Shown one piece after another: positions 6,545 through 56,351 of a stretch of DNA of 64,000 bases. The notes under the pieces are model-generated. The model saw only the letters and a program-made list of their open reading frames with translations. It did not search any database and was not told the DNA's origin. Position numbers and translations under genes: made by a program. Location: IMG/VR virus record IMGVR_UViG_3300017565_000003; one strand, given 5' to 3'. The DNA is from a virus. The stretch's first letter is position 1. Every line of letters starts with the position of its first letter.

Positions 6545-7057
6545 TTAGACTTCTGGAATTTGCTTCTGTTTACCAAGAATAATTTCACGATTCTCTAAAG
6601 GTAGCTCCTGAATTTCTTTCTGAACTCGCTTAATCTCATTACTCAACTTATCATCTAATTCAGCAATCTCATAAATTTTGTCATATAAATAGGACATTGA
6701 TTCTTGAGGAAATTGCTTTAAAATAAATTCAGCAACTTTACTGTTTAACACTTCTTTAATTTCTTTATAGATGTAATCTGCTTTTTTACTAGTAGTCATG
6801 CTAACATCAGTAAAGTGCTTGATTACGTAATAACCGATTATATCTGATCCAGCAATCTCAATTTCCACTTTTTCTTTTTTGGCTAAACTTAGGAAAGAGT
6901 AGAAATCATCCCTTAAATCTGCAACTTTTTGCGGAGAGAAAAAGGGATAAATTTTAATTTCATGCGGTTCACCATTTACATCAATATCAATGGAAACCGA
7001 TTCTTTATAACGCTTATTGTCATTTTTAATATGACTAATAGTTAATTTCTTACTCAA
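6545..7057 (-). CDS. Putative tail assembly chaperone (YomO-like)
   Basis: Position downstream of tail tube; size. Confidence 0.45.
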   Translation of the reverse strand: MSKKLTISHIKNDNKRYKESVSIDIDVNGEPHEIKIYPFFSPQKVADLRDDFYSFLSLAKKEKVEIEIAGSDIIGYYVIKHFTDVSMTTSKKADYIYKEIKEVLNSKVAEFILKQFPQESMSYLYDKIYEIAELDDKLSNEIKRVQKEIQELPLENREIILGKQKQIPEV

Positions 7058-23978: not shown

Positions 23979-24329
23979 ATAAAATAACCCTCCTAGATAA
24001 CTAAGAGGGGAGTTGGTCTGCGACTAGACAGACAATGTATTTGCACTCAGTCGTGCGGTACGCAAGGTACAAAAATAATGAATACTAAAGTAGGTGGGGC
24101 GGTCTCATGACTTTTCAGCAATGGTTCCCACATCTCCTACCAATCTTTCGAAAGGGCGATAGCTACCTGTTCTATCCTCTACTTTAGGGAATCGTGTAAT
24201 GTTAAATTCCTGGTCTACAATAGACAAATCTTAATAAATTACCGGATCACAATTGATCAATTGTTTAATTTATTTGTGAGAGTAGTATGTTGCTTGGGTA
24301 AGTATAGTTTTTGCTATACTTGTCTTACA

Positions 24330-31982: not shown

Positions 31983-32264
31983 ATGAACGACTATTTTTCC
32001 TACATCTTATCCAATTTATCTCTCAACGAAATGAAAGTTCTAGGAATCCTCTCAGATAATCAAGCAAACATGGTGTTTAAGGCCATGAAAAAGAAAACAA
32101 TCCAAGACTTATCACAACTATCTACAGCTAAATTACGTAAATCATTGGATCGTCTTGAAGCAAATAGATTCATTGACTTTGTGACTAGCGAAAAGGAGCA
32201 CAAAATTTACATTACTGACTATGGGCAAGTTGCATTAAATCAATCATTGAAGGAGGAATTTTAA
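31983..32264 (+). CDS. tubR: TubR-like winged-helix centromere-binding protein
   Basis: Small wHTH (LRKSLDRLE...IYITDYG) 1 bp upstream of tubulin-like gene. Confidence 0.65.
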   Translation: MNDYFSYILSNLSLNEMKVLGILSDNQANMVFKAMKKKTIQDLSQLSTAKLRKSLDRLEANRFIDFVTSEKEHKIYITDYGQVALNQSLKEEF

Positions 32265-32265
32265 T

Positions 32266-33369
32266 ATGTTTTTAGGAATTATCGGAATTGGAGCTGCTGG
32301 AGGTAACGTGGCAGACGAAGCAGCATTAAGAGGTATTCCAAGTGTAGCAATTAACTTTTCTAAACAGGACTTAGACTCACTTATGCATGTAGAAGAAGAA
32401 AATAAGCTTCATTTCGTAGGCTCAGAAGGAATTGGAAAGGTTAGAGATAATGCAATTATGCTTATGAGAAACAATTGGGAATTAGCAGTTAACTTTATCA
32501 AAACTAAAATGTCAGCACCTTCTATAGAAGTAATCTTAGTTTGCTTTTCTACAGCAGGTGGGAGCGGGGGAGGGAGTAGTCCTGTACTATTAGAAATACT
32601 TCAACAAGAGTTTCCTGATAAGGTCTTTGTCGGTGTACCCATTCTCCCTTCGAGAAATGAGGTAATAATTAACCAAATCAATTGTTTGGAGACAATGAGC
32701 GAACTGTCTAATCAAGATATAGCAATATTCCCAATTGACAATGAAAAAGTAAGAACAACCCATGAACAATTCTCAAAAAACAAGTTATACAACTTTGCTA
32801 ATACACAATTTATAGAAATATTATCAAAAATTATCTCTTATACAGGTAAATACTCCAAACTTGGCGTTTTAGATCAAAAAGACCTCTTACAGCTTTTCAG
32901 TCAGCCTGGTGTTTCAGTGATATCTAGGCTTACAATCAATGAAATCACTAATGCGAAACAAATAAACGAATACATCCAACGGTCATGGAAGAAGTCTATA
33001 TTTGCACCAATTGACTATACACAAGTAATCAGAGCTGGAATCATTTCAGATGGGACTGAACAATTAATTGAAAATATTAACCACGAGGAGTTGTTCAAAG
33101 CCTTCAAGAATGGGATGCCAGTGGATCTCTTTGAGGGCACATTTCTCGAATCTGATGGTCTTGTACTGTCTATTCTCAGTGGACTCCCTTGGATTAATGA
33201 ACGCTTGTCAGAGATAGAGGATATTATCAGTAACGGTAGGGTTGACCTTGAAATTACAGCTAAAACTTTTACCCCTAAGACAAACTATAAAAACTTTAGA
33301 CAAAAGCCTGTTCAAAAGACACCTACTAGTGGCAATGCTTTGGATATCCTAAAGAAATACCAGAGGTAG
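32266..33369 (+). CDS. tubZ: Tubulin/FtsZ-family GTPase, TubZ-like
   Basis: GIGAAGGN, GSEGIGK, AGGSGGG tubulin signature, IDN, LDQKD; basic C-terminal tail. Confidence 0.8.
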   Translation: MFLGIIGIGAAGGNVADEAALRGIPSVAINFSKQDLDSLMHVEEENKLHFVGSEGIGKVRDNAIMLMRNNWELAVNFIKTKMSAPSIEVILVCFSTAGGSGGGSSPVLLEILQQEFPDKVFVGVPILPSRNEVIINQINCLETMSELSNQDIAIFPIDNEKVRTTHEQFSKNKLYNFANTQFIEILSKIISYTGKYSKLGVLDQKDLLQLFSQPGVSVISRLTINEITNAKQINEYIQRSWKKSIFAPIDYTQVIRAGIISDGTEQLIENINHEELFKAFKNGMPVDLFEGTFLESDGLVLSILSGLPWINERLSEIEDIISNGRVDLEITAKTFTPKTNYKNFRQKPVQKTPTSGNALDILKKYQR

Positions 33370-46387: not shown

Positions 46388-46414
46388 GCTAAACTAAATA
46401 CAATTAGAACGTCT

Positions 46415-46470
46415 AGAACGTCAATCATATTCAACTCTTATCAATAGGGTTATATGTTGACGTTCTTTTT
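46415..46470 (+). terminator. Long hairpin terminator after Com-like gene
   Basis: AGAACGTCAA...TTGACGTTCT followed by T-tract. Confidence 0.65.
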
Positions 46471-46875
46471 ATTTGTCTCATAATCCTAACTATATCTAAT
46501 AACTATCAGCTTACACAACCACATTATCACTATTCATTTAGTGTTTATATAGATATATCTTATTAAAACCTTAGTCATTCAGACGTTTATATTCTCTCAT
46601 ATTCAACTCAATACACAACCTAATACACTTACACAACACTAATATTAAACGTCTTATAATCAATCCTAAGCATTCTCAACATTATACTTTTTAACGATTC
46701 ATTTTCCATTCTAAGCGACTCTTTATACTCATAGTATCCTTACATTACTTATCAATTTCAGCTATCTCATAAGCTAATATAAACAGTCTTATCTATATAT
46801 TTTACCTATATTAATCCTACAATTTTTAAGATTTTACATATATTTTAAATTCAAAAATGAAAAAATTGAAATTAT

Positions 46876-47164
46876 CATATAACAGAAGTCCCACAATAGA
46901 ACATGGAATTTTTCATATAACAGCGACCACGGAAACGAACGGCAGCATTTTAGAAATTTTTATATAACAGATTGTTGAAAATAGAACTGGCCTTTTTAAG
47001 AAAAATATATAACAGCTCACCATTAAGCAACCTGGACTTTTTCAAATTAACATATAACAGCAGCCTAACTAATGAACTGGATCAAATTTATCTATAACAA
47101 TCTCACCAACTAAACACCAGCACATTGAAATTAATATATAACAACCAACTCCTGATCAATTCAG
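46876..47164 (+). repeat. Seven-unit bipartite repeat array, ATAACAR-N13-(GAA)CYRG
   Basis: ATAACAR at 46879, 46917, 46964, 47009, 47054, 47094, 47138. Confidence 0.8.
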
Positions 47165-47296
47165 CAAACTTTACAAACAAATTTAATTATTTACAAATAA
47201 ACTATATACATCTTATCCATATCATGTTATACTAGAAGTAACTCTTTAAAGGGTTGCTTTATTAGCATACAACTAAATTTAACAGGAGGTTAAACA

Positions 47297-47491
47297 ATGC
47301 AAGCAACTAAACAAGAAAAGTTTTTCTTTTGTTACAATTCAACCTTGGCCAAGTATTTAAAATTAAAAGGGTTTGACTATGTAACCAGGGCAAAGCATTA
47401 CAGATCCAACAAAGAATTTACACTATACACAATTACAAAGGAGCTAGAAAAATGTATTCAAGAATGGAACACTAACAATAAAACTAGATAA
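47297..47491 (+). CDS. DUF5659-like small protein
   Basis: FFCYNSTLAKYL...HYRSNKEFTLY...W pattern. Confidence 0.6.
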   Translation: MQATKQEKFFFCYNSTLAKYLKLKGFDYVTRAKHYRSNKEFTLYTITKELEKCIQEWNTNNKTR

Positions 47492-47501
47492 GGAGAATTA
47501 A

Positions 47502-48998
47502 ATGAAATTAAGTAGTCAATTAGAAGATAAAATTATTCAGCGTTTTTTCGATTTATACATAACTGCACAATATAAATATCTATCTTTAAAACCTAATGGA
47601 ATCTATATTACATACAACTCACAAGAAAATGAAAATCATCAACCTTTAAAAAGATGGCACATAAGAGAGCACCTACAAGACAAACATACAATAGGAATCT
47701 TTGCACCTGACTTTGTAGCTAAATTTATATGTTTTGATATTGATGTTAACGATAAACTTAATGCAAAATGGACTACATACAAGTTAGTTGATAGATTGAT
47801 AGAAATAGGAATTCCAGCGGATTATATTTACATTTCTACCAGTGGAAACAAGGGTTATCATGTAGACATATATTTCAATGATCTTGTTTTAATTGAAGTT
47901 GTTCACGACTTTTATAATATTGTTATGTCTGACTTTGATATGAATCATGTTAAAGGTGAAATAGAATTAAGACCAACAACTCAAGGTGTCAAGCTTCCAC
48001 TAGGTAGAAACTTTAAGAATAAGAATAAATCTAATAATAAATGTTGGTATGTTAATTATAATGAAGGTTTAAAGCCTATACGCTCATACAAATACATATT
48101 GAATATTAAACAAATTGACACCACGATAATTAAAAATATTATTGAAAAGTATGAAGAGATTGAAGTATTAAAACATACTGTAGATGAATATGAAGGTGTT
48201 CAAGTTGAAACAACTAAGGGTTATCTAGACGGAAAATATAAAACTTTACCAGTGTATAAAAAGAATATTGATCACAAAGCTACTATAGAAGAGATACAAA
48301 GGATTGAACTAGAAGGAATCAAAGCACCTGGAACAAGACATAATTTATTATATGATTTATGTAGGTATTATAAACATAATGGATTATCAATAGAAGACAA
48401 TCAAAACGAATTAATCGATTGGATGAATAGTCAAGATCCTAATACATATAGAACACCTTTAAAAGACTGTATGAAGGATATTAAAGGAATTGTTAAACAT
48501 ATTTATGAAAATGATGTTACACTAACAATTGAAACAAAAGAAATTGTGAAAGTTACATATGATGAAATGCTACAAATTTTAAATATAAAAAATAAAAATG
48601 AAAAACTTTTAACTTATTCAATGTTAATACATAGCAAACGTTATGCAGCTCAAAACGGTACATTTTACATGACATATAAACAAATGAATGAAACTACGGG
48701 ATTAAGTGATAGGACGGTTAAACGTCTTGTAAATAAGTTAGAAGAGAATGGAATCATAGAAATAATTGAAAGGAATAGAAAAGTTATATCTAACAATAAA
48801 CTAATCACTAAGAAGCCTAATATTTATAAAATGTTAATTGAAGTTGATATAGAAGAGGAAATAGAATCAAACTACATAACTATAGATAATGATATTGATT
48901 TAAATAATGCTATGTTATCACTATTTGAATTAAATGTATTAAAGAAAGTATTACCTGATAGACATTACCGTGAAATTTACAGTGTTTCAAATATATAA
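47502..48998 (+). CDS. Archaeo-eukaryotic primase-domain protein with PriCT-like and wHTH domains (Rep-like)
   Basis: HL...TIGIF, FDID, SGNKGYH, VKLPLG; GTRHN; C-terminal TGLSDRTVKR HTH. Confidence 0.75.
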   Translation: MKLSSQLEDKIIQRFFDLYITAQYKYLSLKPNGIYITYNSQENENHQPLKRWHIREHLQDKHTIGIFAPDFVAKFICFDIDVNDKLNAKWTTYKLVDRLIEIGIPADYIYISTSGNKGYHVDIYFNDLVLIEVVHDFYNIVMSDFDMNHVKGEIELRPTTQGVKLPLGRNFKNKNKSNNKCWYVNYNEGLKPIRSYKYILNIKQIDTTIIKNIIEKYEEIEVLKHTVDEYEGVQVETTKGYLDGKYKTLPVYKKNIDHKATIEEIQRIELEGIKAPGTRHNLLYDLCRYYKHNGLSIEDNQNELIDWMNSQDPNTYRTPLKDCMKDIKGIVKHIYENDVTLTIETKEIVKVTYDEMLQILNIKNKNEKLLTYSMLIHSKRYAAQNGTFYMTYKQMNETTGLSDRTVKRLVNKLEENGIIEIIERNRKVISNNKLITKKPNIYKMLIEVDIEEEIESNYITIDNDIDLNNAMLSLFELNVLKKVLPDRHYREIYSVSNI

Positions 48999-52646: not shown

Positions 52647-54545
52647 ATGAAAATGACAGCAGTTTTAAAATTAAACGAAGAATTAAAAGGAATCGAATTA
52701 TACTTTGACACTAAGCCACAAAGCGAAGTTTTAACAAATTTAAAATCAAATGGTTTTCGCTGGTCAGGATTTAAAAAATGTTGGTACACTAAGCAATCTG
52801 ATAAAGCTTTTCAAGTTGCTAACAGCTTAGTAAATAGCACTGAAGAAGTTAAAACAGAAGCAGCACAAAAAACAACTAAAATACATACTAAGAAATCTAA
52901 AACAGTAAAAGAAACATTAAGCTTATGGGATGCTACACAATGGGAAGGCCTAGAAATTTCTCAAAATGTTAAAGATCAAGACTGTAAAGAAATTGCAAAA
53001 GAAATTCGTTCACATGTTAGAAAAAGATTTCCTCAATGTAAATTTTCTGTTAGAGTGCCTTATTACGGTAAAATTGATTTTGATATCAAATCTAGTCCAT
53101 ATGAAAAAGATTCAGCTTATTTAAACGCAATTAAAAAATATTGTGATGAATTAGTTAACGCTTATAAACATTGCTATAGAGAAGGAGATCCATACACTGA
53201 TTTAGCAGCAAGTTATAACTTTTATTTCTTTGGTGTAGATGTTTCTTACGATTATACGCAAACAGAAGCTACAAAAGAAATTAAAAAAGATATGATTGAT
53301 TTTAATTCTAAATTAACTGAATTTGAAAAAGCTGAAGAGGAAAGAAAAGAAGCAGAATTTCAGGAGTACATGAAGCAACAAGAATTAAGAGACATTGAAT
53401 ATAAAAAGCAACGTGAAGAGGAAAAGAAACAAGTAGAAGACATTTACAACAGTATTGAAGTTAATGAACTAGAAGAAAGTAAACAGTATTTTGTAATTGG
53501 TTCAGAGTTTGCAAACTTAAATAAAAATAACACATTAGAACAATATCAAGAAGAAGTAAACAAAGGAAAGTTTACACTTGAAAATGTAAGAATTGAAAAA
53601 GAAATACATTTCAATAACTTAGAAGCGTTAGAAAATTTCTCTAATATGTTATTGAATGACTTTGACTTTTTAACTAACACTGGTGGAAGTTATACGGATG
53701 ACAATAGACTCAATTCAATGATTGATTTCTATAATATGGATGAAGAAGAAAAAAGCACAGTGAAATGGAATTTAAGAGGAGTAGCAATCTATTTCAATAA
53801 CGAATTACAGTTTGTTGTAGATGCTCAAGGCTATTCATATGCTCGCTATGTAGGCCTAACAGATAATGCAACAATTGAAAGAACATTCGTATATGATCAA
53901 TTACTAAATGATGAAGAAATAACAGAGTTAAAACAACAAGCTGACCAACTGGAAGACATTTCAACAACTGTTATAGAAGAATTAAACATCTTTGATAGTT
54001 GGGAAAAAGAAAACTGGAAAGAGTATAAAGAAGGTATTAAAGATAAACTAAATAAATATAGTTTAAAATTAACCAAAGAGATTATACAACAATTAGAAAT
54101 TGAAAACCTAAAAGCACATATGTATAAAATCTTAACAGAAGTAGATGGAATTCAAGAACAATTTAAAGAAGCAGCAATAGAACAAGGTGAAAAAGTAACA
54201 CTGTTTTATATTTCTGATTTTGGATCAATTGTAACTAGTCGTATAACATTTGACAGTGTTACAAATCAATCCTACGCACAATATGACAATGCGGTTAAAT
54301 TAACATTTAAACCGGAAAATAAAAGGAAGTTACACTATAAGCATTTTTATTCTACTTTGTTAGTGTTCAAGGGCTGGCATGAGCTTCCACAATCAGTATT
54401 ATATAACGTTGAGCATAAAAACGGATTTATAGTAACTAGCAGTAAATACCATTCATGCGACAACAGACAGTATGACGAGATTCTAGAGCATTTTGAACAG
54501 CAAGGTATTAAACCAGTAGTAAACACCTACAAGCCAAGATTCTAA
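52647..54545 (+). CDS. Large polyvalent-type protein with LPD29-like domain
   Basis: N-terminal GIELYF..KP...LKSNGFRW...WY, then EIAKEIRSHVRKRFPQCKFSVR. Confidence 0.6.
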   Translation: MKMTAVLKLNEELKGIELYFDTKPQSEVLTNLKSNGFRWSGFKKCWYTKQSDKAFQVANSLVNSTEEVKTEAAQKTTKIHTKKSKTVKETLSLWDATQWEGLEISQNVKDQDCKEIAKEIRSHVRKRFPQCKFSVRVPYYGKIDFDIKSSPYEKDSAYLNAIKKYCDELVNAYKHCYREGDPYTDLAASYNFYFFGVDVSYDYTQTEATKEIKKDMIDFNSKLTEFEKAEEERKEAEFQEYMKQQELRDIEYKKQREEEKKQVEDIYNSIEVNELEESKQYFVIGSEFANLNKNNTLEQYQEEVNKGKFTLENVRIEKEIHFNNLEALENFSNMLLNDFDFLTNTGGSYTDDNRLNSMIDFYNMDEEEKSTVKWNLRGVAIYFNNELQFVVDAQGYSYARYVGLTDNATIERTFVYDQLLNDEEITELKQQADQLEDISTTVIEELNIFDSWEKENWKEYKEGIKDKLNKYSLKLTKEIIQQLEIENLKAHMYKILTEVDGIQEQFKEAAIEQGEKVTLFYISDFGSIVTSRITFDSVTNQSYAQYDNAVKLTFKPENKRKLHYKHFYSTLLVFKGWHELPQSVLYNVEHKNGFIVTSSKYHSCDNRQYDEILEHFEQQGIKPVVNTYKPRF

Positions 54546-54613
54546 ATAACAGGCAGTTTACAAGGGTTCTGCATATAACAAAAACCCTTTAATATTTCCA
54601 GGAGGTTATAAGA

Positions 54614-56221
54614 ATGTTTAAAAGTAATCCTGATTTTTTTCCAACTCCTTTAACACTTCAAAGAAAGATGTTAAATAAAATAGATTTCCGATATATTCAA
54701 AGTTGTTTAGAGCCAAGTGCCGGGAAAGGTGATCTTATTGAAGGGATCATAAAACAATTTGAATATACTAAGAACTATCACAGATCAAATAAATATGATA
54801 TTGACGCAATAGAACAAGATTCTAACCTTATTCATATATTAAAGGGTAAAAACTATAGAGTAATTTCCGATGATTTTTTAAACTTTCATACATACAAACA
54901 ATATGATCTAATAGTCATGAATCCTCCTTATAGTAACGGTGATAAGCATTTACTCAAGGCAGTTAACTTAATTGAGTCACAAAATAAGTCATGCCAGATA
55001 GTGAGTTTGTTAAACGCTGAGACTCTTAAAAATCCATATACTAACACTAGGAAAGAATTAGTAAGAAAACTTGAAGAATATAACGCAGAAGTTGAATATA
55101 TTGAGAATGCTTTTATAGATAGTGAAAGAAAAACGGGAGTAGAAACGGCACTTATTTACATCAATATAGAGAAAAAAACATATAACAGCTTGTTATTAGA
55201 CGAACTGAAAAAAGAAGAGCAGCACAAAGAAAATACAACTTATGAAAGTACTAGTTTAATAAATTCAGATTTTATAAAAGGAATTGTTGAGCAGTATAAT
55301 CATGAGGTTAGAGCCGGATTAAAATTGATAAATGAATATAACAGCTTGCGTCCACTAATGCTACAGAGTTTTAACGATAACAGCAGCCCAGTATTAAAGT
55401 TGACACTTGATAATGAAGATAAAGAGGGAAGCAGTATAGAAAACGCATATATTAAACAGATACGCATGAAATACTGGAGCGCATTATTCAACAATGATCA
55501 ATTTATGGGATTGTTTACAAGCAATCTAAAACAAAAGTATATGCAGCATGTGCAGGAGTTAAAAGACTTTGACTTTTCTTTATATAACATTTATACATTA
55601 CGAATTGAGATATCTAAAGAAATGGTTCAAGGCGTAGAGGATACAATTTTAAATTTGTTTGAGGAATTTAGTTATAAACACTATTACGATGAGCAGAGCA
55701 AGAATATACACTTGTTTAATGGCTGGAAAACAAATAAGGCTTATAAGATTAACAAAAAGATTATTATTCCTTTAAACGGCTTTAACGGTTGGTTTGATAG
55801 TGCATATCGTCCTACAGATTACAAAGTACTAGACAAATTAAAAGACATTGAAAAAGTGTTTAATTACCTAGACAACGGACTCACAGAAGAAATAGACATA
55901 ACAGACACTTTAAAAATGGCTGAACACTATCAGGAAACTAGAAAGATAGAGTTAAAATATTTTTATATAACATTTTATAAAAAAGGCACATGTCACATTG
56001 AATTTAAAAATATGGAACTTTTGCAGAAATTTAACTTATACGGAAGTCAGAAACGAGGGTGGATTCCTCCAAGCTACGGAAAAGTAAGATACAAGGATAT
56101 GACAAGGGAAGAGAAAGAAGTAATTGATAATTTTGAAGGTGAACAATCTTATAACAAAGTAATGAAAAATAAATCATATTACATAGTTGATACAAATGAT
56201 CTACTTCGATTAACATCATAA
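54614..56221 (+). CDS. N6-adenine methyltransferase with DUF4942-like C-terminus
   Basis: DFFPTP, LEPSAGKG (SAM binding), NPPY (catalytic), FYKKGTCHIEF. Confidence 0.8.
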   Translation: MFKSNPDFFPTPLTLQRKMLNKIDFRYIQSCLEPSAGKGDLIEGIIKQFEYTKNYHRSNKYDIDAIEQDSNLIHILKGKNYRVISDDFLNFHTYKQYDLIVMNPPYSNGDKHLLKAVNLIESQNKSCQIVSLLNAETLKNPYTNTRKELVRKLEEYNAEVEYIENAFIDSERKTGVETALIYINIEKKTYNSLLLDELKKEEQHKENTTYESTSLINSDFIKGIVEQYNHEVRAGLKLINEYNSLRPLMLQSFNDNSSPVLKLTLDNEDKEGSSIENAYIKQIRMKYWSALFNNDQFMGLFTSNLKQKYMQHVQELKDFDFSLYNIYTLRIEISKEMVQGVEDTILNLFEEFSYKHYYDEQSKNIHLFNGWKTNKAYKINKKIIIPLNGFNGWFDSAYRPTDYKVLDKLKDIEKVFNYLDNGLTEEIDITDTLKMAEHYQETRKIELKYFYITFYKKGTCHIEFKNMELLQKFNLYGSQKRGWIPPSYGKVRYKDMTREEKEVIDNFEGEQSYNKVMKNKSYYIVDTNDLLRLTS

Positions 56222-56351
56222 CAGAAAATTATATATAACAGTGGGTTAGTTTTCGAGCTGGCTCACTAGAGGTTTTTATATAACAGATTCAAATTGTACG
56301 AACCGGGCTTATTAAGATTTTTGCATAACAGAAATCTTTGTATAACACCAG
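56218..56351 (+). repeat. Second bipartite repeat array (same unit as 46876..47164)
   Basis: ATAACAG at 56235, 56280, 56325 (period 45) each followed after 13 nt by GAGCTGG, GAACCGG, ACACCAG; extra copy at 56218. Confidence 0.75.

Follow-up and report, generated by a model that had tools for sequence, protein, structure and literature searches.

To our knowledge, the temporal control of SPbeta-type phages is known only in outline (arbitrium, MrpR with its SPBRE element, and a single YonO late promoter). The RNA-binding antiterminator and attenuator systems of Bacillus (HutP, LicT/SacY with their RAT sites, TRAP and PyrR) rely on known proteins and on single leader sites in cellular operons, the RNase III sites of T7 early mRNA are long double-stranded hairpins, T4 PeSL cassettes contain a sigma-70 early promoter, and iterons are tied to an initiator and show neither sense polarity nor placement at ribosome-binding sites. 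The stoperators of cluster A mycobacteriophages (bound in L5 by the gp71 repressor) are short asymmetric motifs, present in tens of copies per genome, whose orientation follows transcription (PMC9283540). SPBRE measures 15 bp and occurs about ten times, as single copies in promoter regions (PMC10516654), whereas for YonO the recognised promoter has yet to be defined (PMC5467207).

We describe here TATAACAG, a hitherto undescribed 8-base signal in a clade of large SPbeta-like Bacillaceae phages, of which a tandem array (array A) is the densest local form. The window (i.e. the whole stretch of 64,000 nucleotides analysed, from IMG/VR virus record IMGVR_UViG_3300017565_000003) belongs to a soil-metagenome contig of 162.7 kb that represents an SPbeta-like phage; among the sequencing runs listed as containing it, all are soil-metagenome DNA and none is RNA. 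The late genes (minus strand, 1-31121) include those of terminase, portal, head protein and a YonO-type RNA polymerase of 929 aa, and the early genes (plus strand, from 31983 on) include those of TubR/TubZ, FtsK, UvrD, a Com-type zinc ribbon, an AEP primase with HTH, LPD29 and a Dam/DUF4942 methyltransferase. Like L5 stoperators, the copies of the signal belong to a temperate phage and are placed in its promoter regions and short intergenic spaces; unlike them, they lie in one early region, form tandem arrays of 3-7 units and possess a fixed tail (13 variable bases, N13, then a second box, box2, and a T-run) that is sometimes a real terminator, the host and the phage lineage being unrelated. 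As with SPBRE (the operator of MrpR), a repeated intergenic element is found in the early part of an SPbeta-type genome of the same broad lineage, but the SPbeta-group phages SPR and BUCT082 show no enrichment of TATAACAG (a comparison by length, copy number and location). The Bacillus antiterminators resemble the arrangement that we propose in that a short single-stranded RNA tag is positioned at the 5' foot of an intrinsic terminator, or overlaps that foot, and a bound protein decides whether the terminator forms, and differ from it in that the tag is here dispersed over a phage early region, occurs in tandem and is mostly followed by tails devoid of a stable stem. T7 RNase III sites and T4 PeSLs are also repeated, sense-only regulatory modules that separate nearly all small early genes from one another; neither has the TATAACAG 8-mer or the tandem-array form.

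Array A (46878-47164) is confirmed as real and non-random. The seven co-oriented units that a preliminary description had reported are all present on the plus strand (ATAACAR starts at 46879, 46917, 46964, 47009, 47054, 47094 and 47138), with the periods that it gave (38, 47, 45, 45, 40 and 44) and with exactly 13 unlike bases between ATAACAR and its listed second box in each of the seven. It was likewise right that the array is no plain tandem duplication: Tandem Repeats Finder makes no array call there, because the N13 stretches differ. The matrix scan that it had proposed was performed with 44 columns derived from the array units and with 20 shuffled windows as control, and the units of array A stood out on the plus strand only (28-42 bits, versus a top score of 17 bits in the shuffled windows), while no site on the minus strand of the window exceeded 8 bits. 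Besides the seven units, the matrix matched positions 56235, 56280 and 56325 together with two weak coding sites, the three positions being those of the units of a second array (array B, 56234-56351) that had gone unreported; the rest of the window holds no site comparable to those of the two arrays. The boxes and the N13 stretch were correctly delimited, but the unit itself is longer than had been claimed, and runs from an A/T block through TATAACAG (box1), N13 and box2 to a T-run. Only 15 of its ~45 positions are common to the units, and the composition of N13 is biased by position (no G at +8; AATA at +17 to +20). As the array-bearing stretch of the contig is 100% identical in four data sets (over 5-21 kb), comparing spacers between strains is uninformative. 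The coordinates of the units and of the neighbouring features are collected in Table 1.

Table 1. Features of the two arrays and their surroundings (positions within the window; scores from the 44-column matrix)
Feature	Coordinates	Strand	Score (bits)	Remark
G-poor non-coding leader holding array A, 909 bases	46388..47296	+		between Com-type zinc-ribbon gene and 64-aa ORF + primase
Sigma-A-like promoter match 5' of array A	46457..46484	+		10/12 positions; consensus match only
Array A unit 1, TATAACAG-N13-GAACATG	46878..46905	+	38.7	
Array A unit 2	46916..46943	+	39.3	box2 GAACGGC
Array A unit 3	46963..46990	+	39.2	box2 GAACTGG, then T-run
Array A unit 4	47008..47035	+	32.0	box2 AACCTGG, then T-run
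Array A unit 5	47053..47080	+	41.7	box2 GAACTGG
Array A unit 6, variant TATAACAA	47093..47120	+	28.2	box2 ACACCAG (as in array B unit 3)
Array A unit 7, variant TATAACAA	47137..47164	+	33.0	box2 AATTCAG
Sigma-A-like promoter match with TG extension	47205..47233	+		consensus match only
Operon 3' of array A: 64-aa DUF5659-like ORF, AEP primase with C-terminal HTH_36 domain	47297..48998	+		
Motif doublet in methyltransferase leader	54545..54601	+		ATAACAR starts 54546 and 54575
Dam-like/DUF4942 methyltransferase gene	54614..56221	+		between doublet and array B
Array B unit 1	56234..56277	+		13 bases 3' of methyltransferase stop
Array B unit 2	56279..56306	+	38.9	box2 GAACCGG
Array B unit 3	56324..56351	+	30.6	box2 ACACCAG, then T-run

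The statement that array A lies upstream of the primase gene holds as far as position is concerned, with the qualification that a 64-aa ORF (47297-47491) intervenes. Of the two sigma-A-like promoter matches in the leader, the upstream one has its -35 hexamer within a 10-base inverted repeat and, if active, would cause array A to be transcribed as a leader; the downstream one is found 41 bases 3' of the array and 5' of the 64-aa ORF and primase. The RNA of array A is predicted to be no more structured than shuffled sequence (z = +1.0). Just 3' of the Com-type gene (46405-46484), the -35 hexamer is flanked by a tandem 9-mer (TAGAACGTC, twice) and the 10-base inverted repeat, with 32 bases between the two; they resemble a dimeric repressor operator and are distinct from the array motif. 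The part of the leader 5' of array A (46510-46637) also contains a 13-mer present twice (172 bases apart), and 9- and 10-mers present twice (100-118 bases apart).

The methyltransferase gene is bracketed by the motif. In the doublet that precedes it, the first copy begins on the stop codon of the upstream gene, and the second (54574-54581) is situated within the loop of a 7-bp stem (54562-54568 with 54583-54589), directly 5' of the ribosome-binding site; this stem shows one compensatory G-C to U-A change relative to a related contig, G001 (thin evidence, coming from two sequences only). In unit 1 of array B, N13 and box2 together form a terminator-like hairpin (56240-56267, -9.2 kcal/mol) that is followed by a T-run. 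The arrangement of two copies 5' and three copies 3' of the methyltransferase gene is shared by G001 and the window, all but box1 having diverged. Some 570 bases of non-coding DNA (56380-56950) follow array B. On its minus strand this segment has a strong terminator-like hairpin of 14 pairs (56442 to 56411), and it also contains a palindrome of 16 bases (56494-56509); it has no Rfam match and may be an antisense or small-RNA gene. Beyond it (56950-59646) are encoded an ANT/P22_AR_N antirepressor-like protein, an MT-A70 methyltransferase (annotation of the record) and an RNase H-like ORF (59269-59646).

Outside the window, TATAACAG recurs in five distant phage records and in one isolate, Psychrobacillus phage Perkons, and is thus dispersed family-wide, a point absent from the preliminary description. 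A three-box pattern scan of IMG/VR identified G001-G004 as true analogues, in which the spacers differ and the N13 geometry is retained, the remaining matches being mostly ordinary coding tandem repeats; G001 is a 52.5-kb contig that shares YonO (74%) and the methyltransferase (73%) with the window, and G002-G004 are records of 130-138 kb. The corresponding metagenome scan added, among the matches listed, one further short contig. The exact single-unit pattern gave 84 IMG/VR matches that belong almost entirely to one unrelated coding sequence family or to chance, and the two-box pattern gave no IMG/VR locus with at least two matrix matches above 18 bits. In L202, whose primase is 62% identical to that of the window, 15 copies of TATAACAG occur (1.6 expected), all on the gene strand, and motif doublets flank the primase gene on both sides; Perkons (isolated and temperate) carries 15 forward copies and 1 reverse. 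Neither by DNA nor by primase protein was a match obtained among known phages. By single proteins, the closest isolated relatives are BUCT082 (YonO 61% identical) and SPR (methyltransferase 72% identical), two Bacillus (B. subtilis) phages of the SPbeta group in which TATAACAG does not rise above background and in which k-mer enrichment yielded no analogous motif. In SPR (L264, 10630-10790), a 15-base word containing AAACAG and the ribosome-binding site precedes two successive small genes 3' of the homologous methyltransferase; the junction motif may have a distant counterpart in this word.

Of the 126 copies in seven sequences (from six phages, L202 being represented by a 21-kb part of its contig), 119 have the sense orientation relative to the local genes, 5 the antisense orientation and 2 an ambiguous one, as opposed to a 34:24 split for a reversed control word. 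This polarity contradicts the proposal, made in the preliminary description, that the units are tandem leftward promoters, and many copies furthermore abut ribosome-binding sites on the same strand. More than half of the copies (59/112, 53%) lie outside ORFs of at least 50 aa, although only ~12% of the DNA is non-coding (by crude ORF masks), and within each genome they are concentrated in one early region (roughly 4-17 kb) of small co-oriented genes. Box1 is invariant among phages whose shared proteins are 21-45% identical (few and deeply diverged relatives), and the 13-base gap and the T at +31 to +34 are constant, while box2 varies by phage (GAACYGG or ACACCAG in the window, TYRCNAG in G001, GTTGACG in G002-G004); upstream of the 8-mer, the cross-phage comparison revealed no conservation beyond the A/T block.

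Solitary copies are located on or just after stop codons, or directly 5' of ribosome-binding sites, and some fall between the ribosome-binding site and the start codon, with a second copy upstream. Only ~20% of copies stand 20-50 nt from a start codon provided with a ribosome-binding site; in G003, copies are found 38-61 nt 5' of most small genes. The arrays follow a recurrent order (G003, G002 and G004, by a crude promoter scan), in which the stop codon of one operon is succeeded by the array and then by the sigma-A-like promoter of the next. In G002-G004 the box2 of the last unit doubles as the -35 hexamer; a sigma-A-like promoter match was also recorded in L258 (3160-3189), and we found no fixed register between the motif and such promoters. 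No association of the motif with tRNAs was found. At six sites (unit 1 of array B; L202 9537, 11568 and 15229; G002 63120; G003 95960) a hairpin with T-run starts no more than 3 nt from the CAG of the motif. Most units have no hairpin (mean folding energy -2.5 kcal/mol versus -1.9 for shuffles), and a terminator scan returned none of the array A units as an intrinsic terminator. The predicted unpaired probability of the motif (0.60) exceeds that of nearby 8-mers of the same composition (0.54, p = 2e-4), an effect that is small and confounded by AT-rich intergenic DNA. In about 5 of 112 copies (G003 and the methyltransferase leader among them) the motif is the exact loop of a 6-8 bp stem, the stem sequences being unrelated.

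Taken together, strict sense polarity, placement at junctions, terminator-type tails and the tendency to be single-stranded point towards transcription units as the level at which the signal acts, and TATAACAG most likely controls transcripts that cross operon boundaries. As to how it does so, we tentatively favour, at clearly less than even probability, a tag that is read at the RNA level on early transcripts, the arrays being tandem attenuator or boundary modules; the reading of RNA in place of DNA, control at the step of termination and the existence of a dedicated factor are the parts of this that we infer. Early transcripts would then carry the tag as single-stranded UAUAACAG, to be recognised by an RNA-binding factor with sequence specificity, which may be a regulator or an endoribonuclease and may come from the phage or from the host. 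In the basic module, the tag would stand at the 5' foot of a terminator-type tail (~20 nt of N13 and box2, then a U-run), and single tags would be displayed at gene junctions, on stop codons, before ribosome-binding sites and in hairpin loops. With array A in the leader between the upstream promoter and the replication operon, and array B at the end of the methyltransferase operon, the arrays would serve as multi-step attenuators or insulators, at which transcripts arriving from upstream would end unless a tag-bound factor blocked or reshaped the tail; at solitary tags, the same factor would act on single early genes, by setting their translation or their processing. This reading covers three sub-versions alike, namely antitermination through an occluded stem foot, processing by an endonuclease and control of translation. 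Several observations weigh against an RNA tag: no reader protein was found, most units have no hairpin, the single-strandedness effect is small, display in a loop concerns only about 5 of 112 copies and only ~20% of copies stand at the above distance from a start codon; in addition, the box2 sequence itself is conserved within a phage (GAACYGG, and ACACCAG in both arrays), which suggests direct recognition and not a mere stem arm, and the doubling of box2 as a -35 hexamer in G002-G004 suits a DNA operator equally well. An RNA read from upstream had been put forward in the preliminary description together with a guide function; the RNA-level part of that proposal fits best, and the part concerning guides or processed spacers is left unsupported, since the composition of N13 is constrained and no cas-like partner is present.

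A more specific proposition, which we regard as rather doubtful, is that the early programme of the clade depends on a single RNA-binding factor, which reads UAUAACAG at dozens of junctions and sets termination, processing or translation, the arrays acting as graded multi-terminator gates or as a sponge for the factor (in the manner in which CsrB is a sponge for CsrA). A search for a protein that reads the motif gave none. The Com-type zinc ribbon has no homologue or Pfam match in the other motif-bearing phages, the DUF5659 and HTH_36 proteins are patchily distributed and do not adjoin the arrays, and a 342-aa ORF looks weakly CoiA_N-like and not MrpR-like. Apart from four replication or nuclease-type ORFs that are themselves absent from the window, BLAST profiling detected no protein common to all motif-bearing phages yet absent from SPR and BUCT082. 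A single-factor UAUAACAG regulon, if true, would constitute phage-wide post-initiation control of a kind not known from phages of Gram-positive bacteria. The arrays might also find use as compact orientation-dependent insulators in Bacillus engineering. Even if the RNA-tag reading is wrong, the motif is well defined, family-wide and currently missed by annotation pipelines; as a conserved polar 8-mer it is a concrete cis element that marks early junctions in several distant phages, of which Perkons is culturable. Depending on which explanation is correct, it may turn out to be a Gram-positive counterpart of stoperators, a new regulon of RNA-level antitermination or processing, or the missing promoter of a non-canonical RNA polymerase.

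The main rival explanation, albeit a fairly unlikely one, is that the copies are stoperator-like DNA sites, i.e. an asymmetric operator for a lysogeny or temporal repressor, with solitary sites blocking the elongating host RNA polymerase in an orientation-dependent manner and arrays functioning as stacked roadblocks and operators, placed ahead of the replication operon and behind that of the methyltransferase. The sense polarity, the short intergenic sites, the many copies and the temperate lifestyle all match mycobacteriophage L5 (PMC9283540), and orientation follows transcription here as it does there (119 sense versus 5 antisense copies). SPbeta itself has a multi-site master-repressor element (SPBRE/MrpR; PMC10516654), the arrays abut or overlap sigma-A-like promoters, and a two-part site could fit a two-domain repressor. 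Nevertheless, no candidate repressor was identified (no MrpR-like protein was recognised in the window), the sites keep no fixed register to the sigma-A-like promoters, and the exact 8-mer is retained in distant phages, with proteins of only 25-40% identity, yet missing from two closer SPbeta relatives. Furthermore, an operator leaves unexplained the fixed N13-box2-T-run tail, the coupling to terminators, the display in loops and the single-strandedness.

We consider it unlikely that a phage-specific RNA polymerase or sigma-like factor uses the motif as a short promoter and starts at or near its AG; every array unit would in that case consist of a promoter with a terminator-like tail and yield an RNA of ~30 nt, and solitary copies would drive individual early or middle genes. 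The sense-oriented, intergenic copies and their spacing of 38-61 nt to most small genes of G003 speak in its favour, as does the lack of enrichment of sigma-A-like promoters beside the motif. A YonO-type polymerase is encoded in the window, in G001 and in Perkons (the match in G003 is weak, ~70 residues at 30% identity), but SPR and BUCT082 also have YonO and are devoid of the motif, and no copy is found 5' of the late minus-strand genes, which are the targets of YonO in SPbeta. Copies between ribosome-binding site and start codon, or on stop codons ahead of terminators, are equally hard to reconcile with a promoter; a -10-type reading would put the start site within the ribosome-binding site, and beyond the A/T block the flank upstream of the 8-mer is unconserved. 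No link with the YonO promoter was found: the SPbeta start site lies ~1.2-1.4 kb upstream of yonK (from the primers in PMC5467207), in a stretch that does not contain TATAACAG. On the minus strand of the window, a 10-mer (ATAGAACAGG, 24166-24175) that resembles ATA plus the box2 part of array units 1 and 3 is found 195 nt upstream of the yonK-like gene, and AGAACWRGG-type words precede yonK in SPR and BUCT082, at distances of 221 and 240 nt; the ATAGAACAGG site lies within the long yonK leader, away from the mapped YonO start region. An array of sigma-A promoters was rejected, for TATAAC has a C at -7 (where T is expected), the distance from box2 to box1 is 17 bp (16-18 bp being expected) only in units with a 45-bp period and not in the 37-39 bp arrays, and promoter matches are fewer than in shuffles.

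Iterons or clt-like sites for the AEP/Rep protein or FtsK had also been suggested, an idea that is weakened by the motif not being tied to the primase and that retains a DnaA-box cluster in a Priestia relative as its support. In the form that we considered, and hold to be distinctly unlikely, the arrays are origin iterons for the AEP primase with its HTH or for a neighbouring small winged-helix protein, array A being the origin and array B a second cis site (cf. P4 ori/crr and P1 incC/incA). As in P4 and P1, short direct repeats stand beside a primase or initiator gene and a second array is found kilobases away; unlike there, the motif occurs without the primase and the primase without the motif. 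Array A is situated in a 0.9-kb A/T-rich non-coding region directly 5' of the primase module, the L202 primase gene has doublets on either side, the matching region of the Priestia relative (L430) has seven co-oriented DnaA-box-like sites, two of them perfect, and the phage may live as a plasmid, given that it carries TubZ/TubR. On the other hand, the expected co-occurrence with an initiator gene was not seen in the relatives: there are 15-24 copies in each of G002-G004 and Perkons, for which BLAST returned no homologue of the primase, and the motif is absent beside primases of 32-49% identity (L001, L088, L429 and L430). Moreover, strict polarity, placement at ribosome-binding sites and stop codons, and the bracketing of the methyltransferase gene are not properties of iterons, and a period of 37-47 bp does not correspond to an integral number of turns of the helix.

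The Priestia prophage L430 (primase 49% identical) has its DnaA-box-like cluster within 145 bases (6899-7043) of a 2-kb non-coding region 5' of a small ORF and the primase, and this cluster is likely an origin or a DnaA-controlled region in that relative. No such cluster exists in the window, which has one perfect DnaA box (44622); three one-mismatch boxes correspond to the background rate. In the Paenibacillus prophage L088 (5108-5435; primase 34% identical), four copies of a ~20-base element starting with TTAGTTAC are found in the 500 bases 5' of an XRE gene, a small ORF and the primase, i.e. a different repeat in a matching position.

A guide or small-RNA array with informative 13-nt spacers, or a DNA decoy that titrates a host defence protein, is very improbable, for although the N13 stretches all differ and the array RNA would be unstructured and accessible, the composition of N13 depends on position, the arrays have no conserved effector gene next to them, Rfam gives no match and neither model accounts for the solitary junction copies. 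The absence of a CRISPR system, already noted in the preliminary description, is upheld by conserved boxes of only 8 and 7 nt (CRISPR repeats have 23-50 nt) and by Pfam/PHROG scans of 49 of the larger ORFs of the window, which disclosed no cas domain. A type III toxin-antitoxin (ToxI-type) array, in which near-identical repeats of ~36 nt adjoin the gene of a ToxN-like endoribonuclease, was discarded because the units share 15 of ~45 positions and are not near-identical, and Pfam scans showed no toxin-like neighbour of the arrays; the array has no match in Rfam. DnaA, LexA and ComK boxes, IHF sites, ECF/sigma-54 promoters, T7 class II terminators, RTP/Ter sites, Chi and KOPS were considered as resemblances and rejected on inspection.

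At the start of the early region (31983-33369), a TubR-like winged-helix gene accompanies TubZ (a tubulin/FtsZ GTPase, Pfam E = 2e-14), a pair that suggests a type III partition system, through which the phage may persist as a plasmid prophage in the manner of Clostridium phage c-st; the YonO-type polymerase of the latter is 31% identical to that encoded in the window.
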